Assembly (NCBI GenBank): GCA_035550655.1
Contig: DASZOU010000037.1
Span: 19,159 to 83,158 of the forward strand
Length of the DNA: 64,000 bases
From: Mycobacteriales bacterium
Lineage (GTDB): Bacteria; Actinomycetota; Actinomycetes; JAFAQI01
Direction: 5' to 3'
Under the pieces are notes generated by a model, which made no database searches, was not told the origin of the DNA, and saw nothing but the letters and a program-made list of their open reading frames with translations. Position numbers and translations under genes: made by a program. How positions within the stretch are numbered: the stretch's first letter is position 1; every line of letters starts with the position of its first letter. Positions 893 to 64,000 of the stretch are shown here, in pieces.

Positions 893-1512
893 TGGGCGCA
901 ATCCGAACGATTCCCCGAGCCACGGTGAACGGCTACCTGCGAACGCTACGGCTCCCGCTGTCGACCGCGGAGCGCATCGCGAGGCAGCGGGACAACGACA
1001 GCTGGGCGCCGGCGCTGGCGTTCGAAACACTTGAAGCCAAGGTGGAGGGCATCGCCGGCTACCTCCTCCGCGACGACGAGCTGCTCGCCACCGCCCGAGA
1101 GCGGGAGGAGAAGGTCGCCAACCTCAAAGCAGCCCGCACCCTCGATGAGGCTGCGGATGTCGAACGCGGCAACGCCCGCGACCAGCAGCGCCGGCGGGAG
1201 GCGCAGATCGCACAGGCGCGCGGCCGCACCACACGAGTCGCGGCCGAGCGCAAGCGCAAGGCGAAGGCCGAGGCGGAGCGCAAGAAGCGAGCGGCCAATC
1301 AGACGGCGTCGCGGAAGGCCGCTGCGGTCCAGGCTCAGGAGACTGCACAGCAGAAGGCCATCGATCGCCGTGAGCGGGCCACCAAGAGCGAGGCACTGCG
1401 CGCGGAGGCGGAGGCTCTGGACCTCACCGACAAGGCGCTACAGGCGCGCGAGAAGGCAGACCTGATCGACAAGACCCTCGAAGGCAACAAAGCGGCCCGC
1501 AGGACCGGCTAG
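893..1512 (+). CDS. hypothetical protein with charged (E/K/R/A/Q) coiled-coil C-terminal half
   Basis: ATG follows a CCAGGAGG RBS in the listed ORF 619..1512. The N-terminal 60 aa are globular-looking and the remainder is highly charged helix-former residues. No family recognised. Confidence 0.5.
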
Positions 1513-47396: not shown

Positions 47397-49736
47397 GTGG
47401 AAGATCTCTCGGTGAAGAAAATCGCCGCCATCGCCCTGCTTCTCACGGGTCTTGCCACACCACTGCAGATCGCCAGCGCCAGTCCCCACGCGCAGGCGAG
47501 GCCAAGCGCGCACGGCGGCGCCCGCCAGGCCTACGCGACCGGCCTCCGGCCGGGAGCGGCGACGGCACTCGTGAACGCCGCCGGTCACACGGTGGCGACC
47601 CAGCCCGCCGACTCGCTCGGCGGCGTCGTCTTCCGTGACGTCAAGCCCGGCAGCGGCTACCTGGTCAAGGAACAGAGCGGGCCGGCGTCCCGCCCCGTGA
47701 CCGTGCACACGGCGGCAGCCAAGCCGTGGGACCCGAAGGTCTACGACCAGACGATCCCCGACCACGGCTACGGCTACCTCACGACCCGTGACGGCACCAA
47801 GCTCGCCTATTACGTCCACCCGCCCACGAGCCCAGCCGGGCTCGGCCTGCCGGACGTCACGCTGCCGCCGGGGGTCCCTGACTACGCCCCGCCGTACCCG
47901 ACGCTGATCGAGTACGCCGGCTACGGCTACGCCAACCCGGCCGGCCCGGAGAGTGGCATCGCGATTCTCGCCAACGCCATGGGCTTCGCCGTGGTGGACG
48001 TGAACATGCGCGGCACCGGGTGCTCGGGCGGCTCGTTCAACTTCTTCGAGCGGATGCAGTCCCTCGACGGCTACGACGTCATCGAGACGGTCGCCCGCCA
48101 GCCCTGGGTGAAGGGCCACAAGGTCGGGATGGAGGGCATCTCCTACGGCGGCATCAGCCAGCTGTTCACGGCGCAGACCGATCCCCCGCACCTGGCCGCG
48201 ATCGCGCCGCTGTCCGTGATCGACGCCACCGCCACCACGCTCGAGCCCGGCGGCATCCTCAACGACGGCTTCGCGGTCGCGTGGGCCAACGAGCGCCAGC
48301 ACGATGCGCTGCCGGCCAGCCCGAAGGGTGGGCAGCCCTGGGCCTACAAGCGGATCCAGCAGGGCGACAAGACCTGCAAGGCCGACCAGGTCCTGCACGG
48401 CGAGGCGCAGAACCTGCCCGCGACCATCGCCGCGAACACGCACTACCACCCGGCGTACGCCGACACCCTCGACCCGATCACGTTCGTTCACAAGATCCAC
48501 GTGCCGGTCTTCATGGCCTGCCAGTTCGAGGACGAGCAGACCGGTGGGCACTGCATGGACCTCGCCCAGCACTTCACCGGCACGAAGCAGAAGTGGTTCA
48601 CCTTCACCAACGGCGTGCACGTCGACTCGCTCGACCCGTACACCTTCAACCGCTGGTACGACTTCCTCGAGCTGTACGTCGCCAAGCAGGCGCCGCTGAT
48701 CAACTCTGCGGTCATCAAGGCTGTCTCGCCGGTCGTCTACCAGGAGGCTGCGGGAGTGCCGACGACGGATCTGATCACGCTTCCGGTCGATCCGATCCAG
48801 CTCGACCCGACGTACGACGCCGCGCTGGCCGACTTCAAGCAGATCCCGTCGATCCGAGTGCTGTTCGACAACGGCGCCGGCACCGACCCGGCCGGCCAGT
48901 ACGTCCCCGGCAACCCCTACCCGGGGTTCGAGAAGTCGTTCTCGCGCTATCCGATCCCGGGGACGGTCGCGCAGCGGTGGTTCCTCGGACCCAAGGGCAC
49001 GCTGTCAGCCCACCGGACCGGCCGCGGTACCGACAGGTACACCGCGAACCCGCATGCCTTGCCGATGAACGACTTCATCGGCAGCACGGGTGGCGGCGGC
49101 CTGTGGGGCAACGCCTCGCAGTGGCACTGGAACTGGAAGCAGAACCCGGCCGGCACTGCCGTGTCCTACGTGACGCCGCCCCTCAAGTCCGACGCCACAG
49201 TCATCGGCGCCGGCGCGATCCACCTGTGGGTGAAGTCGTCCACGCCGGACGTGGACCTGCAGGCGACGGTCAGCGAGATCACACCTGACGGCAACGAGGT
49301 CTTCGTCCAGAACGGCTGGATGCGGGCCAGCGAGCGCAAGCTCGAGACCCGCAAGCACACGATCTTCGCTCAGCCGAGCACCTTGCTCGCCCCGGTGCCG
49401 AGCTTCCGCCCGCAGGACTCGCGCCCGATGCCCAAGGGCAAGTTCGTCAAGGTCGTGATCCCGCTGTACTACGAGGGCCACGTCTACCGCGCGGGCAGCC
49501 GGATCCGGATCACCATTGCCGGGCCGAACGGCACGCAGCCGATCTGGTCCTTCCAGCACCCGCGGCCGCAACACGGCACCAGCAAGGTGTCGGTCGCCTT
49601 CTCCAAGGCGCGGCCGTCGGCGCTCTACCTGCCCGTCATCCCGGGAGTGTCGGTCCCGACGGGGGTGCCGGCCTGCGGCAGCCTGCGGAACGAGCCGTGC
49701 CGGCCCTACGCGAAGACGGCGAACCAGAAGGGCTGA
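47397..49736 (+). CDS. CocE/NonD family hydrolase (S15 X-Pro dipeptidyl-peptidase/acyl-esterase fold), secreted
   Basis: 779-aa ORF with a signal peptide. [19 protein letters not shown]...GCSGGSF...GISYGG (nucleophile GxSYG) and a C-terminal beta-sandwich. It is a paralogue of 1509..3554. The start could be the second GTG at 47412. Confidence 0.8.
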
Positions 49737-50789: not shown

Positions 50790-51649
50790 CGCGCCACCCC
50801 CAGGACGGGGCGAAGCGGCGGATTCGCCTCCGGACCGCCGCCCATGTAGGCGAGCACCACGTCTTCGAGACTGAGCTCGTCGACCCGCCAGGCCGGATCA
50901 TGGATCGTGGCCTCCGTCCGCACGATCGCGGTGGTCTGCTTCTCCGTGTGGCTCGACCAGATGACCTGCAGGTCGGCCGGCAGCGTCGTGAGGTCCCGAC
51001 GCACCCCGCTGATCCGCCGGTGCGTGGCCAGCAAAGCGTCGACGTCGTCGGCCAGCTGTACTCGCGCGGCTGAAAGCAACACAAGAAAGTCACACACCCG
51101 CTCGAGGTCTGCGACCAGGTGCGACGACAGCACAACGCTGGTTCCGTGCTCGGCGACGTACGCCGTCAAGGTCGCGAGGAAGTCGCGCCGGGCGAGCGGA
51201 TCGAGTGCGGCGACCGGTTCGTCGAGCAGCAGCAGGTCGGGCCGCTTCGCCAGCGCAAGGGTCAGCGCGAGCTGCGCGCGCTGACCGCCGGACAGCTTGC
51301 CGGCCCGTTGTTTGGGATCGAGGCTCAGGGCTTCGACTCGTTCGGCCGCGAACGCCTGGTCCCATGAGGGATTGAGATGCGCGCCGAACTGCAAGTGGTC
51401 CGCTACCGACAGCGCCGCATAGACGGGAGCGTCCTGCGCCAAGAAGCCGCACTGGCCGTCCACCTCGACGCTGCCTTCAGTCGGCTCCAGCAGGCGCACG
51501 GCGAGGTGAAGCAGCGTGCTCTTGCCCGCGCCGTTCGGCCCGACCAGGCCGGCGATCCGCCCCTCAGGGACCTCGAGGTTGCAGTCGCGCAGCGCCCACT
51601 TGCGGCCGTAGCGCTTACCGAGGCCGGCGGCCGTCAGGATGCTCGTCAT
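50786..51649 (-). CDS. ABC transporter ATP-binding protein
   Basis: Walker A GPNGAGKST, signature LSGGQRAQLAL and Walker B LLLDEP are present. Confidence 0.85.
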   Translation of the reverse strand: MTSILTAAGLGKRYGRKWALRDCNLEVPEGRIAGLVGPNGAGKSTLLHLAVRLLEPTEGSVEVDGQCGFLAQDAPVYAALSVADHLQFGAHLNPSWDQAFAAERVEALSLDPKQRAGKLSGGQRAQLALTLALAKRPDLLLLDEPVAALDPLARRDFLATLTAYVAEHGTSVVLSSHLVADLERVCDFLVLLSAARVQLADDVDALLATHRRISGVRRDLTTLPADLQVIWSSHTEKQTTAIVRTEATIHDPAWRVDELSLEDVVLAYMGGGPEANPPLRPVLGVAR

Positions 51650-52062
51650 GCGATCTCCCGCGCCGATGCGAGGCGAAAGGTGTCGCGAAACAGCGCCTCG
51701 ATGCTCTCGTCATCGAGGCCGGCGGCTCGCGCCTTCACGAGCCAGCGCTCCAGCTCCCTTCGCAACGGCAGCTGCGCGGCGAGCGGCGCGTCGGACAGCG
51801 TCGCCGTAACGAAGGTGCCGACACCAGGACGGCCGGCGACGAGGCCGGCGTGCTCGAGCTCGCGATAGGCCTTGAGCACCGTGTTGGGGTTGATCGCCAG
51901 GGTCCCGACCACGTCCTTGACCGTGGGCAGCTGGTCGCCGGGCTCGAGTAGCCCTAGCCGCAGCGCGTGCCGGACCTGCTGGACGATCTGCAGGTAGGGC
52001 GAGACGCCCGACCGGCTGTCCAGATGGAACTCGATCACGGGCTTCCTCGCATCGGCAAACAC
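51646..52062 (-). CDS. GntR family (YtrA subfamily) transcriptional regulator
   Basis: GTG start. The wHTH block LPTVKDVVGTLAINPNTVLKAYRELEHAGLV is the GntR signature. It is short (138 aa), has a YtrA-like C-terminus, and is followed by the ABC ATPase and permease. Confidence 0.8.
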   Translation of the reverse strand: MFADARKPVIEFHLDSRSGVSPYLQIVQQVRHALRLGLLEPGDQLPTVKDVVGTLAINPNTVLKAYRELEHAGLVAGRPGVGTFVTATLSDAPLAAQLPLRRELERWLVKARAAGLDDESIEALFRDTFRLASAREIA

Positions 52063-52090
52063 CTATTCATCTAGTTGCCTAGATGAATAG
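52063..52090. promoter_or_regulatory. perfect 12-bp inverted repeat operator candidate (CTATTCATCTAG-ttgc-CTAGATGAATAG)
   Basis: The AT-rich palindrome sits in the 42-bp divergent gap between the GntR start codon (52062) and the MmcQ/YjbR-like start (52105). This is the typical position for a YtrA autoregulatory operator. Confidence 0.6.
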
Positions 52091-52104: not shown

Positions 52105-52515
52105 TTGCTGGTCAAGTACGTTCTCCACGTGGTGAGCCTCGACCGCGCCGCCGAGATCGCCCTCGGGCTGCCCGGCGCGGAGGAGGTCGACCGCCGGGGT
52201 CAGCGCACCTGGCGGCTCGGTGAGAAGACATTTGCCTGGGAGCGCACGTTCTCCAAGGCGGACATCCGCCGGTACGGCGAGGAGCCGGTGCCCGCCGACC
52301 CGATCCTCGCGGTCCGGGTGGCGGACGAGGCCGAGAAGACCGCGGTCCTTGCCGAAGACCGACCGGGGTTCTTCACCATTCCGCACTTCGACGGCTTCAA
52401 CGCCGTCCTGATCGAGCTCGGGCGGGCGAAGGTGGCGGACGTCCGCGAGGCGCTGGTCGACGCCTGGCTCGTCTATGCCCCGCCTGCGGTTGCGGAGCGT
52501 TACCTCAAGAGCTGA
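52105..52515 (+). CDS. MmcQ/YjbR family DNA-binding protein
   Basis: 136-aa ORF. The overall pattern (LGLPGAEE...TFAW...GFFTIPHFDG) resembles the YjbR/MmcQ family. Confidence 0.5.
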   Translation: MLVKYVLHVVSLDRAAEIALGLPGAEEVDRRGQRTWRLGEKTFAWERTFSKADIRRYGEEPVPADPILAVRVADEAEKTAVLAEDRPGFFTIPHFDGFNAVLIELGRAKVADVREALVDAWLVYAPPAVAERYLKS

Positions 52516-53746
52516 AGAGCGCTCGTGCGTACCAGTCCGCGGCATCCTGCACGCCGGGCAGCGCAAAGAAGTAACCGCCACCGACGGGAGACACGTAGTC
52601 GATCATCGGCTCGCCGACGAGACGCTTCTGCACCGCTTCGAACTGCGTGCGCAGGTTGCGCTGGAAGCAGTTGAAGATCAGCCCCATGTCGAGGTTGCCG
52701 TTGAGGTCGACGCCGCGGTCGTAGTTGTAGCCGCGTCGCAGGATGCGCGAGTACTCCGACTCCGTCGTCCTCGGGTTGGCAAGCCGGATATGAGCGTCGA
52801 GCGGGATGACAAGGCCATTCGGATCGTCGCGGTAGTTGGGGACGTCGTCCTCCTGGTACCCGTCCAGCGGCGCGCCCGAGTCGCGCTTGCGGCCGATCAT
52901 GCCTTCCTGCTCCGCGAGCGAGACGCGGTCCCAGAACTCGATGAACATCTTGATGATTCGGCAGACGTGATAGCTCCCGCCCGCCGCCCAATCCGGCTCG
53001 GTCCCGTCGCGTTGAGCCCAGAGCAGCGCCCTCGACACGAGGTTGTTGCTGACATTCGGGTTCGCGATCCCGTCTTTGAATCCGAGGTGGTTGCGCGGCG
53101 TGCCCGAAGGCCGCGGCGGCGAGATGAAGCCATCGATTCGCCATCGCAGCTGCATGCCGCCGCGGGTGTGCTTGGCGATGTCGCGCAAGGCGTGGATGGC
53201 AACGTCGGGACTTCCTGCGCAGATCTGCAGAAGCAGGTCCCCGCCAGTCTGTGCGGGGTCGAGATTGTCGTTGGGGAAGGCGCGCATCGGCGAGAGATGC
53301 ACCGGCTTGCGCCCATGAAGCCCGTATCGATCGTCGAACAACGACGATCCGACGCTTGCGGTGATGGTGAGCCCGTCTGCCGGAACCTCCGGACCGACCG
53401 TGCCGCTGTCTGAGGGCGGAGCGCTCTTCCCGAGAGCATGTGGCTTCCCGCCGGCCGTGAGGAAGCGCGCGCGATGGGTCAGCGTCTTGAGCAGCTCCAC
53501 CAGGCCGCCACGGTGATCTGCGGTGACATCAAAGGCCGCGTAGCAGGCAGCGGGCGGCGCCGGCGTCACGATGCCCGCCTGGTGGGCTCCGTGGAACGGC
53601 ACCGCGGCAAGCTTCGCCGCCGGCCCACCGTTGGGATTGCGCGCCGGCGGGCCGTCCTTCTGCAGCCCGGGACGGGGGACGGGGAGAGCCGCGCCGAGCG
53701 CAGCCAGCCCGGAGCCGGTGAGGAAGTTGCGACGGTCGAGGTTCAT
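52505..53746 (-). CDS. efeB: Tat-secreted Dyp-type haem peroxidase / deferrochelatase
   Basis: The Tat signal MNLDRRNFLTGSGLAAL is present, with a DyP fold with conserved distal Asp/Arg region and GxxDG-type block (GFKDGIANP). The ATGA start overlaps the efeO stop. Confidence 0.8.
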   Translation of the reverse strand: MNLDRRNFLTGSGLAALGAALPVPRPGLQKDGPPARNPNGGPAAKLAAVPFHGAHQAGIVTPAPPAACYAAFDVTADHRGGLVELLKTLTHRARFLTAGGKPHALGKSAPPSDSGTVGPEVPADGLTITASVGSSLFDDRYGLHGRKPVHLSPMRAFPNDNLDPAQTGGDLLLQICAGSPDVAIHALRDIAKHTRGGMQLRWRIDGFISPPRPSGTPRNHLGFKDGIANPNVSNNLVSRALLWAQRDGTEPDWAAGGSYHVCRIIKMFIEFWDRVSLAEQEGMIGRKRDSGAPLDGYQEDDVPNYRDDPNGLVIPLDAHIRLANPRTTESEYSRILRRGYNYDRGVDLNGNLDMGLIFNCFQRNLRTQFEAVQKRLVGEPMIDYVSPVGGGYFFALPGVQDAADWYARALFSS

Positions 53747-54642
53747 CAGGTGTTTCCTACCTGCAGGAGGTCGGGAATCGGTGCCAGCCGCTCGTCGGCT
53801 TGGCCCGCAGCGGCATCGATCGCTTCGCGCTTGCGGCGCGGGAGAGACTTGATCGCTGTCCAGTGGCCGTGGTGATGTGCGGTGCGTGCCACATTGACGA
53901 GCCGGGACAAGTCGTGGCGGGCTTTCCCGACGAGGTGAGGTCGCCGCTGTTTGATCAGCGGCGCGAGCAACGTGAGCACCTTATGGGTGGCCTGAACATC
54001 GGCGGTGACAGACGCGAGGGCGGTACCGCTGCCGTACTCGTCGTTGCCACTGAGAGTGTCCCGCACCGCGTCCTCGATGATCTCGTGGCTGCGCAGCACG
54101 AAGTTGCTCGCACCGTCGACGTCGGTCGGGATCGCCTTGGCCAGCGACACGTGAGTAAGGGTCGTCACCGCCCCCGCGAGCTTCCTCGCGTCGTTGCGCG
54201 CCGCGGCGAGGCGCCCGTGCCACAGGTCCCGCTCGACGCAATGAAAGCCGGTGAACTTCGGGTCGCGCACTCCCCCCGAATGGCCCGCGGCGGTGCCGTC
54301 GATTCGTTGCCCGAGATCGCCGAACACGCCGTACGCGCTGTTGTCCTGGCCGATGCGCAGCCAGATCAGCCGGGCGTCGAGCCACGTTCGCTTCGCACCC
54401 GCGCGATCTCCGGCTGCGAGCCGGCGCTGCAAGGTGTGAACTGCGGGCACCAAGGCCTCGATCCTGCCGTGCACGTAGTGGCGGTACTTGCGCAGGGCCG
54501 GGGCGAGGTCGCTCGGCTGCAACGGCTGGGCAGTGCTGCTGTGGGCCGACGCCGACCGCAACGCCCATTCGCCTGCCTGAGGAGGAGCTGCGGTCGCGCC
54601 AACCGCGAGCAGCGCGGCAAGTGCCAGAGCTGGAGTTCGCAC
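53746..54642 (-). CDS. efeO: EfeO-like imelysin (M75) iron-uptake component
   Basis: Signal peptide. A HxxE-containing imelysin-like helical domain is suggested (VHGRIEAL...; GFHCVERDLWH). It sits upstream of and is coupled to efeB. No efeU is in the window. Confidence 0.6.
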   Translation of the reverse strand: MRTPALALAALLAVGATAAPPQAGEWALRSASAHSSTAQPLQPSDLAPALRKYRHYVHGRIEALVPAVHTLQRRLAAGDRAGAKRTWLDARLIWLRIGQDNSAYGVFGDLGQRIDGTAAGHSGGVRDPKFTGFHCVERDLWHGRLAAARNDARKLAGAVTTLTHVSLAKAIPTDVDGASNFVLRSHEIIEDAVRDTLSGNDEYGSGTALASVTADVQATHKVLTLLAPLIKQRRPHLVGKARHDLSRLVNVARTAHHHGHWTAIKSLPRRKREAIDAAAGQADERLAPIPDLLQVGNT

Positions 54643-54768
54643 CGGGGGATAGTAAGGGTATCCTTACTAGCGCCGCAACCGAGGTGCAGGAAGTTCTCGA
54701 CCGGTGGCGAAACTGAACTCAGACTATGACACCAGCGTCATGGTCTGCGCACCTCCGGAGGCTCCTGC

Positions 54769-56172
54769 ATGCGACGCAGCAAGCTCGCCATCACGTCCTT
54801 CACCGGCCTTGCCGGTGTGCTGCTGTCGATCGCCGGAGCCGGTGCCGCGTACGCCGTGAGCGGCGGCGGCTACGGCTCACCGCAGCAGGACTGCCCGTGG
54901 GATGCCAGTGAGTGGAACACGCCGCAGTACATGACCTACGCGGGCTGCCACAACACCCAGCTGACGCTGGAGAGCGGCGGCATGACGGACGGCGTGCCCA
55001 ACAACCGTTACAACAACTCGCCGCGCCACGGCGAGCACGGCGCCGCCAACACCAGCTGGGTGCAGTTCGGGATCAACCAGTCCCCCAACGACGAGAACTC
55101 CAAGGGCACCGGGACGCTCTACTCGCTCGGCTACCCGGGGCAGAGCTCCGCGACGCACGCGGGGTGCCTCTCGGTCAACACCGACGGCACCAACGGCGGC
55201 CCCGTCCCACAGGGCAAGAAGCCCGAGTCGGTGAGCAAGGCCGCAAACCAGAGCAAGTACGGGTGCGGCAACAACAAGAAGGGGGCGGGCTTCGCCCTCA
55301 ACTGGGACTACTACAAGGTGTACTGCCCGCTGGCCGCAGCGCTGCCGTCGTTCCCCTACAAGTGCCAAAGCATCCCGGGCGGGGACGTCGGCAACAACAG
55401 CCTGACGCCGGACACCGGCACGGACCAGAACCTCACCAAGATCCTCACCCAGGGCTTCATCCTCTACTACGGGATGGACGACAACAGCGACAACGGCGAG
55501 CACGACGGCGAAGGGCCCCGCAGCTCGCCGCAGACGCAGGGCTCCGAAGTCGGGCCGTCCGACGGCGGTGCGGTCATGCTCGCCTTCACGCCGTACCGGC
55601 TGGCGCAGTCCGGCACCCTGAGCCAGCCCGAGGGTCTGCTCAACGCGGGCACCGGATTCTGCGCCGACGGCATCTGCGCCGGTGCGACCACCGAGAAGCA
55701 GATGATCTACCAGGGTTGCGACGCCAACACCGGCAACGCGAAGTCACGAGACCGCTGCCCGGCCGGCCGCAAGAACTCTCAGCGCGACTCCTTCGACTAC
55801 TCCGGTAAGCAGTGGGACCCGTACAACTGCAACAGCGGTGGCGAGCAGGACCAGCCGAGCAACAAGCCCCAGCCGGATGCTCCGAAGAACTGCGACACCG
55901 CGCAAAACAACGCCTCGCCCAGTGGATCGAGCAACACCAAGGGCGGGATGGACTACTGGCGGCGCCACGAAGCGCACACGGTCAGCAACGAGCCGGGCTT
56001 CCAGTTCTTCGAGGATCCGGACGCCATGGGGTCGCCGGCCCTGCCGATCTACCCGCTGCCGGCGATCTACGCCGGCACCTGCGGGGTCGCCCTTGGCGGC
56101 GGCGCGGTCGCCATGCCCGACTCGCCGATCACGAACAAGGCACACCAGCTGCGGATCAGCACCGGCTGCTGA
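54769..56172 (+). CDS. secreted Cys-rich Gly/Asn/Asp/Ser-rich protein of unknown function
   Basis: 467-aa ORF with a signal peptide (MRRSKLAITSFTGLAGVLLSIAGAGAAYA). About 20 Cys are spread over the length. No catalytic motif recognised. It is the first gene of a three-gene plus-strand cluster. Confidence 0.6.
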   Translation: MRRSKLAITSFTGLAGVLLSIAGAGAAYAVSGGGYGSPQQDCPWDASEWNTPQYMTYAGCHNTQLTLESGGMTDGVPNNRYNNSPRHGEHGAANTSWVQFGINQSPNDENSKGTGTLYSLGYPGQSSATHAGCLSVNTDGTNGGPVPQGKKPESVSKAANQSKYGCGNNKKGAGFALNWDYYKVYCPLAAALPSFPYKCQSIPGGDVGNNSLTPDTGTDQNLTKILTQGFILYYGMDDNSDNGEHDGEGPRSSPQTQGSEVGPSDGGAVMLAFTPYRLAQSGTLSQPEGLLNAGTGFCADGICAGATTEKQMIYQGCDANTGNAKSRDRCPAGRKNSQRDSFDYSGKQWDPYNCNSGGEQDQPSNKPQPDAPKNCDTAQNNASPSGSSNTKGGMDYWRRHEAHTVSNEPGFQFFEDPDAMGSPALPIYPLPAIYAGTCGVALGGGAVAMPDSPITNKAHQLRISTGC

Positions 56173-56176
56173 CCAG

Positions 56177-56701
56177 GTGGCCCTGACACGCCCGAGCCCT
56201 CGGGCGCTGGGCCTCGTGGGGCTGGTCGCAGCGCTTGCGTTCACGACCACGCTCGCGGGGCTCGAGTGGCGCCGCGCGGACCGCGACGCGTCTCATCTGC
56301 GCGCCCAGCTGCACCACAGCGCCCTCCGGCAGGCTGTCGCCGCACGTGCGGTCGGAGTTGCCACGAACCTCTTCACCTACGACTACCGCAACCTGGCGGC
56401 GACGCAGCGCTACCTGAGGTCTGCCGCCACCGGCGGGTTCGCCCAGCGCGAGGCGGCACACGACCCGGCCGTTCAGCAGCAGCTGAGGCAGGCGAAGGCG
56501 GTTGGGTCGGCGACGGTCAAGGAGGTGACGGTCTCCGACGTCTCCGCGATGCAGGCGACCGCGTTCGTCGTCGTGATGACGCACGTGAGCAGTACGACGT
56601 CAGGCAGCGCTGACGGGATTGCCTACCTGCATCTGCACCTGCGACTGGTTGGCGGGGTCTGGAAGGTCGACGACGTACAGAACCTCAGCGCGGCCAGCTG
56701 A
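56177..56701 (+). CDS. membrane-anchored protein resembling Mce-associated membrane proteins
   Basis: GTG start 5 nt after the upstream stop. It has an N-terminal TM helix (LGLVGLVAALAFTTTLAGL) and a C-terminal SnoaL-like-looking domain (YDYRNLAATQRYL...VKEVTVSDVS...VGGVWKVDDV). Confidence 0.45.
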   Translation: MALTRPSPRALGLVGLVAALAFTTTLAGLEWRRADRDASHLRAQLHHSALRQAVAARAVGVATNLFTYDYRNLAATQRYLRSAATGGFAQREAAHDPAVQQQLRQAKAVGSATVKEVTVSDVSAMQATAFVVVMTHVSSTTSGSADGIAYLHLHLRLVGGVWKVDDVQNLSAAS

Positions 56702-56736
56702 CAGGAGTACGTTGCGGGTGACGAGGGGTGGTCCCC

Positions 56737-57435
56737 ATGACCGTTCGACACCTGTTCGCGATCATCACCCTCACCACGACCGGACTGCTGGTCGACGCCG
56801 GAGCCGCGACGCCGGCCGGCGCGGCAGTGTCGTTCACCTGCGTCCCCTCCGATGCCAACACCTGCGTCGTGACGATCCCGTTGACCTCCGACATGAACGA
56901 GGCGGTGACCTCGACCATGCCGGACAACCAGCCGTGGTACCTGAACAACATCGACGGCAACGGAACCGTGCGGGCGCCGTACACGCTCACCGCCGATCAG
57001 TACGGCGGGAACTTCGACGGTCCGCCAGGTTCGACACAAGGCCATGTCTGGACCGAAACCCTCACGACCGGTGACAACGAACCATCTGGTGGCGACGCGG
57101 TACTCACGTTCCGGCACGTGAACAACACCACCGCCGTGCCGTACATATCGGTCGCCTACTCAGCACCTTCGACGGCCGTCCGCCATCAGGACGTGACGAT
57201 CTCCGGGAAGGCGAAGCCGCGGCCCGCAAAGGGGCACTTCGTGCTGCAGCGCAAGGGCGGCGGGAAATGGAAGACGATCGAGACCCTGACCTATCGCGCC
57301 AGGACCCATACCTGGCAGACGACCTTCGTATGGACGGCCGCGCGGCACTCGACCGTCACGCTCCGCCTCGAGGCGACAAAGGCGCCGGGCCTGCTCGCGA
57401 CGCCGACGCCGGCCTTCAAGATCCGGACGTCGTAG
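56737..57435 (+). CDS. secreted hypothetical protein
   Basis: ATG after a GAGGGGTGG RBS. It has a signal peptide and a beta-rich body with two Cys near the N-terminus (SFTCVPSDANTCVV). No family recognised. Confidence 0.5.
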   Translation: MTVRHLFAIITLTTTGLLVDAGAATPAGAAVSFTCVPSDANTCVVTIPLTSDMNEAVTSTMPDNQPWYLNNIDGNGTVRAPYTLTADQYGGNFDGPPGSTQGHVWTETLTTGDNEPSGGDAVLTFRHVNNTTAVPYISVAYSAPSTAVRHQDVTISGKAKPRPAKGHFVLQRKGGGKWKTIETLTYRARTHTWQTTFVWTAARHSTVTLRLEATKAPGLLATPTPAFKIRTS

Positions 57436-57442
57436 CCCAGCG

Positions 57443-58570
57443 TCAGCCGTCGAGCTGGCTGGCGAAGCGCTCCGCGACCTCGAGGTAGCCGGCGACCATC
57501 TCCTCGACGATCTCGCGGGCCGGCTTGACCCGGTCCATGAGCCCGACGCCCTGACCGACAAAGTACGTCGCGAGCTGCTCCGCGCCGCTCCCCGCGGTCC
57601 GCGCGTCCCGGGCGATGCGCACCTGTGCGTTGGCGACGAGCATGCTCTGCAGGGGCATCGGGAGCGGCGGTGGCGCTGCCTCCGCCTCCCACTCGTCGGT
57701 CCAGGGAGTCCGCAGCATGCGGGCCGGCTTCCCCGTCAGTGAGCGGGACCGCACCGTGTCGCTGGACGTCGCGGTGAGGAACTTCTGCTTCACCACCGGG
57801 TCGGTCTCGGCCTCGGCCGTGGTCAGCCAGACCGAGCCGCACCACACGCCTTGGGCGCCGAGCGCCATCGCCGCCGCCACCTGCTCCCCCGTGACGATCC
57901 CGCCCGCGGCAAGCACCGGCGTCGGCGCCACCGCCCGAACCACCTCAGGCACCAGCACCATCGTCGAGACCTGGCCGGTGTGGCCGCCGGCCTCGGTCCC
58001 CTGCGCCACGATGACGTCGACCCCCGCGTTGACCTGACGCTGAGCGTGCGACTTCGCGCCGACAAGCGCCGCAACGACGATGTCGCGAGCGTGCGCGCGG
58101 TCGATCAGCTCGGGCGTCGGCGGCCCGAGTGCGCTCGCGAGCAACCGGATGTCATGGGCAAGGGCGACATCGAGCAGCGTCGAGTTGGCCTCCGGCGACA
58201 CGCTCATCACGCCGCGTCTGCCGGTACCCGCGCCTTCTGGGATCTCCGGCACGCCGTGGCGCGACAGGATGTCGTTGACGAATGCGACACGGTCGGCCGG
58301 AATGAGGTCGGCGGCCGCACCCGCGTCGGCGGCGGCGGGCGCGGTCGGGACGAAGTTCACCGGCAGCAGCAGGTCGACGCCGTACGACTTGCCACCGACC
58401 TGCTCGTCGATCCAGGCGAGGTCGGTCTGCAACCCCTCAGGGCTATGAGCGACGGCTCCCAGTACGCCGATCCCGCCTGCGTTCGTGACTGCCGCGACGA
58501 CGTCGCGGCAGTGGCTGAACGCGAAGATCGGGAACTCGATACCGAGCCGGTCACACAGGGGCGTACGCAT
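57443..58570 (-). CDS. nitronate monooxygenase (NMO / 2-nitropropane dioxygenase family)
   Basis: The N-terminus MRTPLCDRLGIEFPIFAFSHCRDVVAAVTNAGGIGVLG is the canonical NMO FMN-binding block. The GTEAGGH catalytic block is present. Confidence 0.8.
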   Translation of the reverse strand: MRTPLCDRLGIEFPIFAFSHCRDVVAAVTNAGGIGVLGAVAHSPEGLQTDLAWIDEQVGGKSYGVDLLLPVNFVPTAPAAADAGAAADLIPADRVAFVNDILSRHGVPEIPEGAGTGRRGVMSVSPEANSTLLDVALAHDIRLLASALGPPTPELIDRAHARDIVVAALVGAKSHAQRQVNAGVDVIVAQGTEAGGHTGQVSTMVLVPEVVRAVAPTPVLAAGGIVTGEQVAAAMALGAQGVWCGSVWLTTAEAETDPVVKQKFLTATSSDTVRSRSLTGKPARMLRTPWTDEWEAEAAPPPLPMPLQSMLVANAQVRIARDARTAGSGAEQLATYFVGQGVGLMDRVKPAREIVEEMVAGYLEVAERFASQLDG

Positions 58571-58624: not shown

Positions 58625-60097
58625 TTGCCGCGCATGACCTGCGCTTTTAGGGTCCAGCGGGTGACGCACCGACGCGGGGGCCCGCCCCGCGGTACCGCAA
58701 CGCTCGCGATCACGGCCCTGATCGCGGCCGTTGGCGTCGCCCCCGCGTACGCCCACAGCGCCACCACGACCAGCTTCGTCTCCGGCAGCGCTGTCGCCAC
58801 ATCCCAGGCCTTCCAGATCGACCCCCGCGACGCCGGCCTGGCCGCGACCATCACGGTCGGCCGCTCAGTGGCGCAGTACCGAAACGAACTTGCTCAGGCG
58901 TCGAGCCAGGCGCTCGACCTCGGCCTGATCGGCAACTCCTTGACCGTGCAGTGCAGCTCCCTGCCCGCCCCGCTCACGCCGGGACAGCTCCCGAAGGCCA
59001 TCACCGCCGAGTCGAACGCGGGCGCGTCGGAGACGGACACGAACTCCGGCGGCGCCAGCAACGAGTTCGCGACGGCCGACGCCGGCAACGCGCACGTCAA
59101 AGCCACGCCGCAGCCCAACGAGAACGCGATCGCGTCCTTCGACACCGGGCTGGTCGACCTCCCTGGCGTGATCGCGCTGCATGGGCTGTCCAGCACCGCC
59201 CACGCGCACCTCTACCCGGGAAGCGCGCGTGAGTCCGACTCGACGGCTGACGTCGCCTCGCTGGATCTGGCCGGCGCGGTCAAGCTCGGGGGCCTGCACT
59301 GGCAGACGTCGGTGCGCACCGGGTCGAAGCCCGCGTCCTCCTCCACCTTCACCGTCTCGACCGTGAGCATCGGCGGCACCAAGCTGCCGACGGGATCGGC
59401 CGCGGCGCTGGCTTCGACGTTCAACGCGGTCAACAAGGTGCTGGCGCCGACCGGTCTGCACATCACCATTCCCGAGGTCAGCCACGACAACGGCGCCCTG
59501 GCTATGACGCCGATGTCGATCGGCATCGACCACTCGGCGCTCGGCAAGATGCTGCTGGTCCCCATCTTGAACCTCGTTCACACCGTCTTCGACCCCGTCG
59601 CGACGGCGGTCAACAAGGCCGCCTGCACGTTCGGAAGCCTGTACGGCGCGGTGAACCTGCTCATCGCCGGGCTCGACGGCGTCGGCCAGTTCGACCTCGA
59701 CATCGGCGGGACCACAGCGACCACGAACGACGCGACGTACGCCAACCCGTTCGGCAACGGCGGCAGCGACAACAACAACGGCGGCGGCTTGCTCCCGGGC
59801 GCGACGGCCACGTCCTCGCCGCCCTCGGGTGGCGGTGGCAACCTCGGTGCCGGGACGGCACTGCCAAGCGCATCCGGAGCTCCCGCTCCCGTCCCGAGCC
59901 CGCAAGTCGCGGGGGGCACAACTGACGTCGCGTCGATCTGTTCGACCACCAGTCCGGCTGGGCGCCCGTCATGCGGCCGCGGCGCCGGCCTCGCGGTCGG
60001 TCTCATCGCATTGGCAACTCTCGGCGGGGTAGCAGGGGTGGACTACTTCGTCGTCCGACGTCGACGACGACTGGCGAGGATGGCGATCGAAACTTGA
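58625..60097 (+). CDS. secreted protein with C-terminal membrane anchor, unknown function
   Basis: 490-aa ORF with a signal peptide ending AYA-HS and a Thr/Ser/Ala-rich beta-rich body. It has a C-terminal hydrophobic helix plus an RRRRR stop-transfer tail. It lies directly upstream of an ABC transporter on the same strand. Confidence 0.5.
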   Translation: MPRMTCAFRVQRVTHRRGGPPRGTATLAITALIAAVGVAPAYAHSATTTSFVSGSAVATSQAFQIDPRDAGLAATITVGRSVAQYRNELAQASSQALDLGLIGNSLTVQCSSLPAPLTPGQLPKAITAESNAGASETDTNSGGASNEFATADAGNAHVKATPQPNENAIASFDTGLVDLPGVIALHGLSSTAHAHLYPGSARESDSTADVASLDLAGAVKLGGLHWQTSVRTGSKPASSSTFTVSTVSIGGTKLPTGSAAALASTFNAVNKVLAPTGLHITIPEVSHDNGALAMTPMSIGIDHSALGKMLLVPILNLVHTVFDPVATAVNKAACTFGSLYGAVNLLIAGLDGVGQFDLDIGGTTATTNDATYANPFGNGGSDNNNGGGLLPGATATSSPPSGGGGNLGAGTALPSASGAPAPVPSPQVAGGTTDVASICSTTSPAGRPSCGRGAGLAVGLIALATLGGVAGVDYFVVRRRRRLARMAIET

Positions 60098-61755
60098 GCA
60101 ACGCCGGTCCAACTCCCCCAAGCGGACCCAACACCTACCCGTTCCTTCGCGGCTACGGCCCGCTCGCGTGCCTCTTGGTCGCGTTCGTGCTCATGGCGGC
60201 ATTCGTACCGACCGACGCGCCCCAGCGCGTCACGGTCACGACCGCCGGCCAGGGCAGCACCCCGACCGGCACCACTCCGCTCACCCCGGGTGGCGTGGCG
60301 ACGCCGGCGACGGTCACCGGCAAGAAGGGTGGCCCCGTCGTCGGAGGTTCGGTTCCCTCGACGTCGGCCACCGGCGCGCCGATCACACCGCCGACAGGGT
60401 GCAAGGGCCCCCAGGTCAAGGGCGATCCTTACTCGCCGCCGTGCATCGCGTTTTCCGGGAACAACGGTGGCGCGACGACTCGCGGCGTGACCAAGTCGAC
60501 CATCACGATCGCCTTCCGCGTCACCTCCGACCCGACCTTCCAGCAGACGCTGGCCAGGATCGGCGGCGCGCAGTTCGACGACACGCAGGCGGATACCGAC
60601 CGCACGATCCAGGGGCTCGCGGACTACTTCAACACCCACTTCCAGTTCTACGGCCGAAAGCTCGTCTTCAAGTTCTACAAAGGCCAGGGATCACAGAGCA
60701 ACGAGCTGCTCGGTGGCGGCCAGGCGGCGGCCGCCGCGGACGCGCTCAAGGTCGCGACCGGCATCAAGGCCTTCGGTGACATGAGCGCAGGCACTGAGCC
60801 GTACGCCGACTCCTTGTCGCGCGACAAAGTCATGAACTTCGGTGTGCCGTACATGTCGCAACGCTGGTTCGAGCAGCGCGCGCCGTACTCCTGGAGCATC
60901 GCGACCGACTGCACCGGTGTCAGCGACGCCGTTGCCGAGGTCGGTGTTCGGGAGCTCGCGGGCAAGAAGGCGATCTTCGCCGGATCCCAGTACGCCAACC
61001 AGACCCGCAAGTTCGCGACGATCGCGCCGGACAACCCGTGGTACCAGGAATGCGTCCAGAACGGCGCCAACATCTACAAGCGGGCGGGCTTGCCGGTGCC
61101 GTTGAACATTCCGTACCAGCTCAACCTCGCCACGCTGGCGAACCAAGCCGCGAGCATCATCTCGAAGCTCAAGGCGAACAACATCACCACCGTGGTCTGC
61201 GGCTGTGACCCGATCCTCCCCGTCTACCTGACGCAGCGAGCCGACGAGCAGAACTACTTCCCCGAGTGGGCCGTCGTCGGCGTCGCGCTCACCGACGAGG
61301 ACATCGTGGGTCAGCTGTTCGACCAGGCCGAGTGGGCACATGCGTTCGGCGTGACCTATCAGGGACCGACGCTGCCGTACGCCGCCAGCCTCGGCTACGC
61401 GGCGTACAAGACGGTTCGCAGCGACGAGCCGGCACAGTTCGTGAACCTGATCTACGCGCAGATGTACATGATCGCTCTCGGCATCGATCTGGCCGGCCCT
61501 GATCTCACCCCGGCGAACTTCGAAAAGGGGATGCGGTCCTACCCCACCAGCCAGACCAGCGAGTTCGGCACGTGGGGCTTCCCGCCCGGCCACTACTCAC
61601 CGACCCTCGACGGCGCGCAGATCTACTGGGACCCCAACGCGACATCCGTGTACAACAACAAGAAGGGCGCGTACATCTTCTCGAGCCGGCGCTACACGCT
61701 CTATGACTGGCCGCGCCGGAACTTCTCGCACCAGCCCTACAAGGGCAAGCAGTAG
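60094..61755 (+). CDS. ABC transporter substrate-binding protein (type-I periplasmic binding fold, Liv-like)
   Basis: The start is uncertain (TTG at 60094 overlapping the upstream stop, or an internal ATG). It has an N-terminal anchor helix LACLLVAFVLMAAFV, a Thr/Pro/Gly linker, and an approximately 430-aa binding domain. Confidence 0.6.
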   Translation: MSNAGPTPPSGPNTYPFLRGYGPLACLLVAFVLMAAFVPTDAPQRVTVTTAGQGSTPTGTTPLTPGGVATPATVTGKKGGPVVGGSVPSTSATGAPITPPTGCKGPQVKGDPYSPPCIAFSGNNGGATTRGVTKSTITIAFRVTSDPTFQQTLARIGGAQFDDTQADTDRTIQGLADYFNTHFQFYGRKLVFKFYKGQGSQSNELLGGGQAAAAADALKVATGIKAFGDMSAGTEPYADSLSRDKVMNFGVPYMSQRWFEQRAPYSWSIATDCTGVSDAVAEVGVRELAGKKAIFAGSQYANQTRKFATIAPDNPWYQECVQNGANIYKRAGLPVPLNIPYQLNLATLANQAASIISKLKANNITTVVCGCDPILPVYLTQRADEQNYFPEWAVVGVALTDEDIVGQLFDQAEWAHAFGVTYQGPTLPYAASLGYAAYKTVRSDEPAQFVNLIYAQMYMIALGIDLAGPDLTPANFEKGMRSYPTSQTSEFGTWGFPPGHYSPTLDGAQIYWDPNATSVYNNKKGAYIFSSRRYTLYDWPRRNFSHQPYKGKQ

Positions 61756-61760
61756 TCCGG

Positions 61761-64000
61761 GTGGTCGCCGTACCGGAGGTCGTCAACCGCCACCGGGCCG
61801 TCAGCAGCGGCGCGGCCGCGTTGCTGGCGATCGTCGCGGTCTGCGTGATCTCGCCGCACCGCGCACCGCTCGGCATCGTGATGCAGGGAGCGCTGTTCGG
61901 CTCGGTCATCGGCCTGCAAGCCCTGGGCCTCGTGCTGACCTACCGGTCCGACCGGATCATCAACTTCGCCTACGGCTCGATGGGCGGAGTCGGCGGCTCG
62001 ATCGCCGTGCTGCTCTACCTCGGCCAGCACTGGAGCTGGCCGGCTGCCGTGGCCGCCGGATTGGTGACCGGCGCGCTGCTCGGCGGGCTGACCGAGGTCT
62101 TGATCATCCGGCGCTTCGCCAATGCTTCGCGGCTGATCCTGACGGTGGCGACCATCGGGCTCGCGCAGGTGCTCGGTGGCATCCAGCTGAAGCTGCCGCA
62201 ATGGATCGGCGGACCGGCGCTGGTCGGAGGCTTCTCGACGGCGCTGTCCCATCACACGCTGAACGTCGGACCGGTGCTGTTCACCGGCAACGACCTGGTG
62301 ACCGTCCTCGCGGTGCCGTTGGTCATCGTGGCGCTCGGCTGGTACCTGTTGCGCACCGACTCGGGCATCGCAGTCCGGGCCATCGCCGACAACCGTGAAC
62401 GCGCCTTGCTGCTCGGCGTACCGGTGCATCGCATGGCGACGATCGTCTGGACCGTAGCCGGACTGCTCGCCACGATCTCGGTGATCCTGCCTGCTCCGTC
62501 GCAGGGGCTGACCATCGAAGCTGCCGCGGGCCCATCACTGTTGCTGCCGGCACTGGCCGCAGCGGTCCTTGCCTACAAGGAGTCGCTGCCGATCGCGGTC
62601 TTTGCCGGGATCGGCCTCGGCATCCTCAACCAGCTGGTCGCATGGAACTTCACGCAGGCGTCCGCGAACGACGTCGCGTTCCTGATCGTGATCCTGCTCG
62701 CGCTGCTCGTGCTGCCACGGCAGGGAGGCCGCCGCGAAGGCGCGGTCGAGACCTCGCTGTCGGTCGGTGGCACGGTGCGCGAGATCCCGGCGCAGCTGCG
62801 ACGACTGCCTGAGGTGATCGCCGCCCGGTACGTCGGCGGTGCCGTGGTGCTCGGCCTGCTGGTCTTCCTGCCCCTCGCCTTGAGCCCGTCCACGATCTTC
62901 ATCTTCAGCACCGCAGCGATCTACGCGATCGTCGCGGTGTCGGTGGTGCTCCTCACCGGCTGGTCCGGGCAGGTCAGTCTCGGCCAGTTCGCGTTCGTCG
63001 GGCTCGGCGGCGTCCTGGTCGGCAACCTGATGAACCGCTGGAACCTCGACTTCTTCGTCTGCCTCGTCGCAGCGGCGGCTGCAGGGGCGCTGCTCGCTGT
63101 GCTCGTCGGGCTACCCGCGCTGCGGATCCAGGGCCTCGATCTCGCCGTCACGACGTTGGCCCTCGCTGTCGCCGCCGACGCCTTCTTCTTCAACCCGACG
63201 AACTTCTCGTCGCTCATCCCCAACACGATCACCGCGCCGGTGCTGTGGAAGCGCTTCAACCTCGATCTGCAAACCGGGTCCGCGAGCACCGCCCAGCGTG
63301 GCTTCTTCCTGTTGTGTGTCGCGGTGCTGATCGCTGTCATCGCGATCGCCATCGGGCTCCGTCGCGCTCGGCCGGGACGGGTGATGATCGCGACCCGGGA
63401 CAACCAGCGCGCCGCCGCGGCGATGGCGGTTCCGACGACGCGCATCAAGCTGGTCAGCTTCATCGCGGCGGGGGCGATCGCGGGTCTTGCGGGCGGTTTG
63501 GACGCCATCCACCTGACGAGCATCGGCTACCACAGCTTCGACCCGACCGAGAGCCTCAAGGTCTTCTCGATGGTCATCATCGGCGGCGTCTCGACGATCA
63601 CGGGGGCGCTCCTCGGAGTCGCGCTGATCCAGATCGCGGTTCACTACTGGCCGCAGTACCAGCTGATCATCACCGGAAGCGCGCTGCTCTGGATCCTGCA
63701 AGTGCTGCCGGGCGGGCTCAGCTCGGTCGTGTTCGGGACTCGCGACCGGCTCCTCAAGCGCGTCGCCAGGCGCCGCGGGATCGACCTGACCGCCTCGGCA
63801 GACCACGCCGTCTCCGAGCCGGTGGTGGAGGCCGCGCCGGACGCGAAGCCGGAGGCGGCGGCTGACGCGCTCCTCGTGTGCAGCAACGTGCAGGTGAGCT
63901 ACGGCCCGATGCAGGTTCTCTTCGGCGTCGATCTGGATGTCGCCGACGGCGAGATCGTCGCTCTGCTCGGCACCAACGGCGCCGGCAAGTCCACGATGCT
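61761..64000 (+). CDS. fused branched-chain-type ABC permease (LivH-like plus LivM-like domains) continuing in frame into an ABC ATPase domain; 3' end outside window
   Basis: Frame 0 from GTG 61761 has no stop to the window end, which explains its absence from the ORF track. The LivH-like N-domain has ALGLVLTYRSDRIINFAYG. The LivM-like domain has LLTGWSGQVSLGQFAFVGLGG. At the 3' end an ABC ATPase N-terminus (VQVSYGPMQVLFGVDLDVADGEIVALLGTNGAGKST) is read in the same frame. Confidence 0.65.
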   Translation, partial: MVAVPEVVNRHRAVSSGAAALLAIVAVCVISPHRAPLGIVMQGALFGSVIGLQALGLVLTYRSDRIINFAYGSMGGVGGSIAVLLYLGQHWSWPAAVAAGLVTGALLGGLTEVLIIRRFANASRLILTVATIGLAQVLGGIQLKLPQWIGGPALVGGFSTALSHHTLNVGPVLFTGNDLVTVLAVPLVIVALGWYLLRTDSGIAVRAIADNRERALLLGVPVHRMATIVWTVAGLLATISVILPAPSQGLTIEAAAGPSLLLPALAAAVLAYKESLPIAVFAGIGLGILNQLVAWNFTQASANDVAFLIVILLALLVLPRQGGRREGAVETSLSVGGTVREIPAQLRRLPEVIAARYVGGAVVLGLLVFLPLALSPSTIFIFSTAAIYAIVAVSVVLLTGWSGQVSLGQFAFVGLGGVLVGNLMNRWNLDFFVCLVAAAAAGALLAVLVGLPALRIQGLDLAVTTLALAVAADAFFFNPTNFSSLIPNTITAPVLWKRFNLDLQTGSASTAQRGFFLLCVAVLIAVIAIAIGLRRARPGRVMIATRDNQRAAAAMAVPTTRIKLVSFIAAGAIAGLAGGLDAIHLTSIGYHSFDPTESLKVFSMVIIGGVSTITGALLGVALIQIAVHYWPQYQLIITGSALLWILQVLPGGLSSVVFGTRDRLLKRVARRRGIDLTASADHAVSEPVVEAAPDAKPEAAADALLVCSNVQVSYGPMQVLFGVDLDVADGEIVALLGTNGAGKSTM

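Follow-up and report, generated by a model that had tools for sequence, protein, structure and literature searches.

Do the three consecutive genes at positions 54769 to 57435 of a 64,000-nucleotide stretch of a Mycobacteriales metagenome-assembled genome (MAG; GenBank assembly GCA_035550655.1, contig DASZOU010000037.1) form one exported system, and which of their neighbours belong to it? A preliminary description of this stretch, called the window hereafter, proposed that they make up a single operon of exported proteins from no nameable family, possibly co-regulated with the divergent iron-uptake genes efeO and efeB (efeOB). Our comparison of related loci points to a smaller unit. Very probably, the conserved element is a two-gene module composed of genes 1 and 2, to which gene 3 and efeOB are optional additions. 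The genes in question are the following:

54769–56172, plus strand: gene 1 (HWC36819.1), open reading frame (ORF) of 467 aa, ATG start
56177–56701, plus strand: gene 2 (HWC36820.1), ORF of 174 aa, GTG start
56737–57435, plus strand: gene 3 (HWC36821.1), ORF of 232 aa, ATG start

The ORF coordinates agree with the close packing that was first described, the intergenic gaps being 4 nt between genes 1 and 2 and 35 nt between genes 2 and 3. No terminator-like site was found on the plus strand between the three genes; the only such sites lie on the minus strand, inside coding sequence. The NCBI deposit of this MAG holds identical proteins on a contig of 87 kb, all annotated as ‘hypothetical protein’ (VG650_18580, VG650_18585 and VG650_18590). 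The coding status of gene 1 is supported by its GC content by codon position, as the value at third positions (GC3, 0.93) is typical of real genes in this genome (68% GC). Hydropathy analysis gives each of the three proteins a single N-terminal hydrophobic segment, and no paralogue of any of them is present in the window. The absence of a nameable family was also borne out, since Pfam and NCBIfam give no significant match to any of the three.

Conservation of the gene cluster

The comparison covered 48 genome loci and further contigs retrieved through an exact look-up of their proteins; it was made by tblastn and by clustering of ORFs. The Mycobacteriales clade comprises 13 distinct loci in this set, the window included. 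Gene 2 follows gene 1 in nine of them (the window, L003, L004, L007, L008, L009, L011, L014 and L058). Outside this clade, where the loci come mostly from Acidimicrobiia, a gene 2 homologue is located downstream of the gene 1 homologue in L017 and L020 and upstream of it, with a gap of 37–39 nt, in L029, L031 and L039. In total, the adjacency is observed in 14 distinct loci (nine of the Mycobacteriales clade and five others) and in both gene orders, and every gene 2 homologue with a readable locus tag or context adjoins a gene 1 homologue. Because the adjacency survives a change of gene order, it provides the strongest evidence obtained here that genes 1 and 2 form a functional pair.

The co-occurrence across genomes that would be expected of a three-gene system was thus found for genes 1 and 2, but not for gene 3. 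The latter stands beside gene 1 in three of the 13 clade loci (the window, L004 and L010), and its distant homologues, with 43–53% identity, are solitary among unrelated genes in L005, L056 and L057, without genes 1 or 2. The idea of a single co-conserved system of three genes is therefore not borne out. The gene 3 family is small, with 22 homologues found. Its protein probably starts with a signal peptide, shares a single pair of conserved Cys (C35 and C43; alignment A5) and has no match in the PDB. Weak Pfam signals to Agd3_C (four members) and to the Ig-like Big_3_5 (three members) were far below cut-off and could not be used.

The association with efeOB is equally restricted, to three of the 13 loci (the window, L003, which is identical to L015, and L007). 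In most other clade loci, GntR/ABC-2 genes, usually accompanied by a YjbR-like gene, are located directly upstream of gene 1. On the other side, a gene of the nitronate-monooxygenase (NMO) family lies close downstream of gene 1 in all 13 clade loci, although it is fragmented in L058; in the window this gene (57443–58570) is convergent, its stop codon being 7 nt from that of gene 3. The other recurrent neighbours of gene 1 show no coherent theme (BipA, GGDEF, HhH-GPD, a histidine kinase, a response regulator, inosine monophosphate dehydrogenase and a thioesterase).

The gene 1 and gene 2 proteins

Gene 1 belongs to a genuinely undescribed small family. A word-indexed search with clustering at 90% recovered 306 homologues, none of which has a name or a Pfam domain, and a profile search of 1.84 billion representatives detected only 154 family members at E up to 1e-3, so that the family appears to be closed, without a recognisable superfamily around it. 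Among GTDB species genomes, only MAGs contain it, and its hosts are Mycobacteriales or Frankiaceae-like bacteria, Acidimicrobiales, Nitriliruptorales, a few Dormibacterota and some others. When 52 relatives were scanned singly against Pfam at E up to 10, not even the weak signals were consistent, and the family profile has no match among PDB sequences at E up to 10. The AlphaFold2 model, built with the family alignment, is mostly beta (predicted local distance difference test score, pLDDT, 77.7; predicted template-modelling (TM) score, pTM, 0.80), and Foldseek searches with this model yielded nothing significant either in the PDB (best E 0.13, TM-score about 0.1) or in BFVD (best E = 0.13). 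Sensitive profile and structure searches, which the preliminary description had named as the test of novelty, thus leave gene 1 outside known families.

The gene 1 product starts with a signal peptide (residues 1–29, with predicted cleavage after AYA), and the A-x-A site as well as the mature N-terminus that follows it, VSGGGY, are kept across the family in an alignment of 52 homologues (alignment A1). This signal peptide had been recognized before, but the ‘about 20 cysteines’ reported with it are in fact 14. Across the 52 homologues, 12 of these are invariant and two nearly invariant, which implies seven disulfides; the last residue of the protein is itself a conserved Cys. The composition (G 13.7%, S 9%, A 9%, P 7.5%, N 7.3% and D 5.8%) fits the earlier label of a Gly/Asn/Asp/Ser-rich protein as far as Gly, Ser and Asn are concerned, but Ala and Pro are equally prominent. 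In addition to three His (H61, H130 and H245), the invariant features include the motifs CHN, HxGC..NTDGT, GCGNN, DDNxDNGEHDG, SDGG, CADG.C, DPD..SP and GTCG, and, within the fourth of these, an acidic loop all of whose listed positions are invariant (D237-D238-N239..E244-H245-D246-G247). The short members of the family (about 300 aa, with 8–10 Cys) have kept both ends of the protein and lack approximately residues 95–225.

Two cofactor signatures were considered and discarded. A copper amine oxidase-like topaquinone (TPQ) motif, N-Y-D/E-Y, can be read in the conserved NYDYY stretch, but we rejected it because many members, that of the window among them, have W, F, V or I where the cofactor Tyr would be. 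A MauA-like tryptophan-derived quinone is ruled out as a family feature, as alignment A1 contains no invariant Trp. We also observed tandem gene 1 paralogues in some Acidimicrobiales MAGs (L033, 9749–13398; L034, 7627–11353), and one MAG, SMAG_U14048, carries at least three loci of the gene 1 family (L033, L034 and L038).

Gene 2, for which 23 homologues were found, matches no Pfam or NCBIfam model. Its AlphaFold model (pLDDT 93.5) consists of three helices (residues 8–66, 73–83 and 86–106) and a four-stranded sheet, and its hydrophobic segment, at about residues 11–29, lies inside the long first helix. Foldseek matched this model to the intermembrane-space domain of ARC6, to the IcmL-like structure 5cnl, to DotI, and to CagV, PrgL and TrwG, all three homologues of VirB8, with E-values from 8e-5 to 5e-3, TM-scores up to 0.70 (target-normalised) and 12–17% identity. 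No other structures resemble gene 2 as closely as these proteins of type IV secretion systems and ARC6, which are likewise single-pass membrane proteins, with an NTF2-like domain that serves as a scaffold for envelope complexes. Unlike the VirB8 group, gene 2 has no type IV secretion genes nearby, and, like Mam proteins, it does not have the extra helix of VirB8.

In Mycobacterium tuberculosis, Mam and Omam proteins (Mam1A-D and OmamA-E) have a topology related to that of VirB8, with a long helix that includes the single N-terminal transmembrane segment, a turn made of two short helices and a beta-rich C-terminal domain, and Omam genes are by definition encoded apart from mce operons (Hynonen, Venkatesan and colleagues, bioRxiv 10.1101/2025.03.26.645568). 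The gene 2 protein has the single N-terminal transmembrane helix of this group, and its model elements, Foldseek matches and topology all indicate a VirB8-like C-terminal domain. Like the Omam proteins, it is also encoded away from any mce operon, and the profile of its family (27 sequences) aligns end-to-end and collinearly over about 125 residues with OmamC/Rv1363c (PDB 9r33), although with a weak E-value of 0.11. The resemblance to Mce-associated membrane proteins that had been suggested for its C-domain thus holds for the architecture, whereas the similarity in sequence falls short of significance. No link to an Mce transporter was found: in agreement with the earlier remark that no mce operon is nearby, there is no Mce gene among the 20 larger window ORFs scanned or among the genes flanking the cluster, nor was one seen in the related loci, as far as their genes were scanned or bear Pfam labels. 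A further difference from the Mam/Omam proteins is the constant neighbour of gene 2, gene 1, which has no counterpart in Mce systems. Judging from the model, gene 2 encodes a single-pass membrane protein with an extracytoplasmic VirB8/NTF2-like domain, similar in topology to the Mam/Omam proteins; it adds a divergent new example to a structural type already known.

Probable control regions of gene 1 and of efeOB

If genes 1 and 2 form a module of their own, one may ask whether they also have their own control region, or whether they depend on the palindrome shared with efeOB, as was first proposed. The features of the region between efeB and gene 1 are:

54757–54761, plus strand: ribosome-binding site of gene 1, GGAGG
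54727–54740, plus strand: palindrome TGAC-N6-GTCA, located between the ribosome-binding site and the promoter-like block (wider form CTATGAC..GTCATGG, 54724–54743)
54686–54713, plus strand: promoter-like block, formed by GCAGGAAGTT at 54686–54695 (GCAGGAAnT), then CGAA in GGCGAAAC at 54706–54713
54650–54669, no strand: AT-rich palindrome TAGTAAGG-GTAT-CCTTACTA, 7 nt upstream of the efeO start
53746–54642, minus strand: efeO-like gene, divergent from gene 1, GTG start
52505–53746, minus strand: efeB, encoding a Dyp-type peroxidase/deferrochelatase (TIGR01412)

In the promoter-like block, GCAGGAA, the T two bases later and CGAA are invariant in 12 of 12 Mycobacteriales-clade loci, whether efeOB is present or not. 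The full upstream block is kept in 11 of the 12 loci aligned, eight of which are without efeOB, and TGAC and GTCA are both invariant in the 11 loci where they could be aligned. The flanking stem positions of this palindrome do not covary, its core being invariant, and Rfam gives no match upstream of gene 1; this favours a DNA site, and we read TGAC-N6-GTCA as an operator rather than as an RNA hairpin. A scan with the sigma-70 consensus found no promoter-like site, and the spacing GGAA...CGAA may loosely resemble that of promoters of the extracytoplasmic-function (ECF) type. From sequence conservation, we infer that the block at 54686–54713 is a promoter and regard TGAC-N6-GTCA as a probable operator. 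In L004 (5975–6013), the ATG of gene 1 directly follows GCAGGAA...CGAA, TGAC-N6-GTCA and the ribosome-binding site being missing, which suggests either a leaderless transcript or a mis-called start.

The AT-rich palindrome at 54650–54669 exists exactly as it had been described. A scan for inverted repeats (arms ≥8 bp, spacer ≤6) found two AT-rich perfect repeats in the window, for about 0.1 expected from shuffles, so that its presence is not due to chance. Orthologous copies, with two to three mismatches, are found only in the loci with efeOB (L003/L015 and L007) and are absent where efeOB is absent. The 19-bp consensus of the IdeR iron box is TWAGGTWAGSCTWACCTWA; the palindrome matches it at 14 of 19 positions in the window, 16 of 19 in L003 (site at 7878–7901) and 15 of 19 in L007 (9877–9900), in all cases just upstream of efeO. 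The window site is the best match in the 64 kb, a level at which about one match is expected per shuffled window. Another match, at 16 of 19 positions, was noticed upstream of a bfd-bfr (bacterioferritin) pair in L014 (1737–1755). It is plausible that the palindrome is an IdeR-type iron box for efeOB. As the upstream block of gene 1 is kept regardless of efeOB, gene 1 appears to have its own control region, the iron-box-like site having arrived with efeOB. Co-regulation of the cluster with efeOB through the palindrome is therefore not upheld: efeOB and the palindrome occur together in three of the 13 loci and are absent together in the rest.

EfeB is a deferrochelatase/peroxidase that reaches 436.5 bits against TIGR01412 (cut-off 428) and carries a twin-arginine translocation (Tat) signal, which passes TIGR01409 (18.6 vs. 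16.7) and falls just below the cut-off of Pfam TAT_signal (21.3 vs. 22.7). The EfeO-like protein passes Pfam Peptidase_M75 but has only 110 bits against the NCBIfam EfeO model (cut-off 270). Unlike in EfeUOB systems, no efeU is found beside efeOB, which is flanked by a YjbR-like gene and gene 1. In the three loci that have it, efeOB resembles an insertion between these two genes.

Upstream of efeOB, a second AT-rich perfect palindrome, TTCATCTAG-TTGC-CTAGATGAA, occupies positions 52066–52087, between the two following genes:

51646–52062, minus strand: GntR gene, heading a GntR/ABC/ABC-2 operon
52105–52515, plus strand: YjbR-like gene, divergent from the GntR gene

Similar palindromes (TATTTATCTAG...CTAGATAAATA) are present at the equivalent place in L009, L013 and L014, and that of the window is probably the GntR operator.

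Elsewhere in the window, a gene at 58625–60097 encodes a 490-aa protein with an N-terminal signal or anchor and a C-terminal transmembrane segment followed by an Arg-rich tail, without Pfam or NCBIfam match. It is kept, with 66–79% identity, shortly before two further genes (59971–64000), one coding for a large solute-binding protein and the other for a fused permease/ATPase. The L003 orthologue of the solute-binding-protein gene carries Pfam Peripla_BP_6, and its start in the window is probably located further downstream, since the annotated ORFs overlap by 127 nt. Two genes of the S15 X-Pro dipeptidyl-peptidase family (1509–3554 and 47397–49736) and a gene for a 933-aa protein with BNR/Sortilin-Vps10 repeats (4413–7214) are apparently unrelated to the cluster.

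A possible role for the module and its rivals

What could an exported protein of an undescribed family do beside a VirB8-like membrane protein? We tentatively favour the following picture, although as a whole we hold it to be slightly less likely than not: an exported, disulfide-locked gene 1 protein is held by the gene 2 anchor, and the pair has its own promoter and operator. The gene 1 protein would be exported by the Sec pathway, cleaved after AYA and folded oxidatively outside the cell into a mostly beta protein, presumably locked by its seven disulfides. The DDNxDNGEHDG loop, with SDGG and the three invariant His, would most likely build a metal site, probably for Ca2+, or a ligand site. 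Gene 2 would be translationally coupled to gene 1 across the 4-nt gap, and its VirB8/Mam-like ectodomain would most likely bind the gene 1 protein and keep it on the external side of the cytoplasmic membrane, much as VirB8, DotI and the Mam/Omam proteins act as scaffolds for complexes of the envelope. The pair would be transcribed from its own promoter-like block and probably controlled by a regulator binding TGAC-N6-GTCA. Gene 3 and efeOB would be lineage-specific neighbours, which may be co-transcribed with the module or share intergenic DNA with it, but which the module would not need.

Several observations weigh against this picture. In four of the 13 close relatives, as in most loci of Acidimicrobiia, gene 1 does not have gene 2 beside it and can thus function alone. 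Gene 2 also diverges far faster than its neighbour: compared with L007, gene 1 is 92% identical and gene 2 only 55%. Finally, the invariant acidic loop falls in a part of the gene 1 model with low confidence (pLDDT <50 at residues 242–264), which makes its role as a metal site a guess. As to the divergence of gene 2, the identity ranks of the two genes are incongruent, gene 1 being closest to those of L007 and L008 (92% and 90%), whereas the gene 2 identities to these two loci are only 55% and 53%, vs. 71% to L003 and L009. This could reflect either a very fast evolution of gene 2 or an exchange of the segment downstream of gene 1.

A different partner for gene 1 is suggested by more distant relatives. 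In 22 loci outside the Mycobacteriales, the gene 1 homologue is abutted by a gene for a beta-propeller protein of 500–600 aa, usually on the same strand and often with overlapping stop and start codons or near-zero gaps. Apparent two-gene operons of this kind were noted in L001 (6069–9293), L025 (9599–13020), L041 (5839–8389), L043, L044, L045, L048, L050, L054 and others. The propeller proteins carry signal peptides, pass the Pfam models PQQ and PQQ_2 and align weakly, but over their full length, with the pyrroloquinoline quinone (PQQ) alcohol dehydrogenases 7wmd, 4cvb and 9m2c. However, their scores do not come near the curated thresholds for PQQ dehydrogenases (84–93 bits vs. 480 for TIGR03075 and 43–68 vs. 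833 for TIGR03074), and they also match BamB and ‘empty quinoprotein’ models. In one database protein, P0269, a gene 1-like segment is fused to a PQQ propeller. NMO-family genes 46–49% identical to that of the window were also observed 2–3 kb downstream of short gene 1/propeller pairs in L041, L044, L045 and L054, and the proximity of gene 1 to such genes thus recurs across classes; in L054 (6438–16770), for example, the NMO-family gene stands among acyl-CoA dehydrogenase, short-chain dehydrogenase/reductase and P450 genes. By contrast, no propeller homologue was detected in the window (tblastn, E up to 1) or, for the 12 Mycobacteriales-clade loci that were clustered, in the 5 kb flanking gene 1 on each side. 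Since the pairing exists elsewhere but not here, the gene 1 family seems to provide a partner subunit for different exported or membrane proteins, depending on the lineage.

These data could be taken to mean that gene 1 is mainly the partner of an exported, PQQ-type eight-bladed propeller in an enzyme or redox complex, the propeller being here encoded elsewhere or replaced, with gene 2 as a secondary anchor. The 22 adjacencies, the signal peptides, the full-length alignments and the P0269 fusion speak for it, but this fusion could be a gene-calling artefact, and the scores of the propellers as well as their absence from the window and from around gene 1 in the clustered loci of the clade make us consider it unlikely. 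Quinoprotein amine dehydrogenases combine a small disulfide-rich subunit with a beta-propeller (MauA/MauB; QhpC/QhpB). The Cys-rich gene 1 homologues of Acidimicrobiia, co-operonic with an exported propeller and once fused to it, recall this arrangement; unlike those subunits, the gene 1 family has no invariant Trp and shows no sequence or fold similarity to them, its propeller partners are of the eight-bladed PQQ type, and the window has none, so that we draw an analogy only. One may go further and imagine that gene 1 represents a new fold, acting in single-membrane Actinomycetota as a dedicated extracytoplasmic partner of quinoprotein-like propellers, as a metal or cofactor subunit or as an electron acceptor, and that it was rewired to a Mam/VirB8-like anchor in Mycobacteriales. 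Amine and methanol dehydrogenase systems, with their Cys-rich subunits or cupredoxins, would offer an analogy to such a role; this is the boldest of our proposals and we give it hardly any credence. Our literature search on PQQ or lanthanide enzymes in Acidimicrobiia returned nothing describing the gene 1 family.

The remaining explanations detach one gene or the other from the pair, or enlarge it. Gene 1 could encode a free secreted protein, a Ca2+-dependent lectin- or glucanase-like beta-sandwich that binds carbohydrates or degrades polysaccharides of the environment or the cell wall, gene 2 being unrelated or serving to retain it. The mostly beta model is compatible with this proposal, as is an acidic loop of the DxNxDN type with a Ca2+ site; concanavalin A-like folds recur among the sub-threshold Foldseek matches (VIP36, galectin-8, PL7 alginate lyase, GH16 and concanavalin A-like phage proteins), and one gene 1 relative, P0286, is fused to a glycerophosphodiester phosphodiesterase (GDPD) domain. 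Yet all these fold matches have E >1, probabilities of at most 0.02 and TM-scores of at most 0.1, none of the 52 gene 1 members has a Pfam carbohydrate-active domain and the neighbourhoods contain no glycan-utilisation genes, so that this proposal strikes us as quite unlikely. Alternatively, gene 2 could be an orphan Mam protein for an Mce lipid transporter encoded elsewhere, as OmamA-E are in M. tuberculosis, its adjacency to gene 1 reflecting shared regulation only. The topology, the collinear alignment with OmamC and the very definition of Omam genes, which lie away from mce operons, would suit such a protein. Nevertheless, the similarity to OmamC is not significant, the scanned ORFs of the window include no Mce gene, and the tiny gene 2 family is seen, where context is readable, only beside gene 1 homologues, in both orders and including those of Acidimicrobiia, which argues for a role specific to gene 1; an orphan Mam protein is accordingly a very improbable reading. 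The same small degree of belief attaches to the original proposal that genes 1–3 form one envelope or secretion system for iron acquisition, co-regulated with efeOB through the shared palindrome. The tight gaps without an intervening plus-strand terminator-like site, a palindrome that is real and rarer than chance, its likeness to an iron box both in the window and, more closely, in the orthologous sites, and the similar site before bfd-bfr could all be cited for it. However, gene 3 is sporadic and its distant homologues are solitary, efeOB and the palindrome, which are always present or lost together, occur in only three of the 13 loci and lie outside the conserved module, the palindrome stands next to efeO and upstream of gene 1's own conserved block, and the match to the iron box in the window, taken alone, is at chance level. 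On present evidence, the cluster should carry neither an iron-related nor an Mce-related label in annotation.

We thus return to an exported gene 1 protein anchored by gene 2 as our preferred, if tentative, picture. Gene 1 is a clean target for structural genomics, with conserved Cys for seven disulfides, invariant motifs and no fold match in the PDB or BFVD, and the link of its Acidimicrobiia homologues to exported quinoprotein-like propellers offers a concrete lead to its biochemistry. Apart from a few other soil MAGs, the family is confined to abundant, uncultured Actinomycetota of soil and peat. To our knowledge, a VirB8/Mam-like anchor paired with a protein of the gene 1 type has not been described before. 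If our picture is correct, this module would add a case in which a VirB8/Mam-type scaffold works with a partner that belongs neither to type IV secretion nor to Mce transport, and the range of functions known for this fold in the envelopes of Gram-positive bacteria would become wider.

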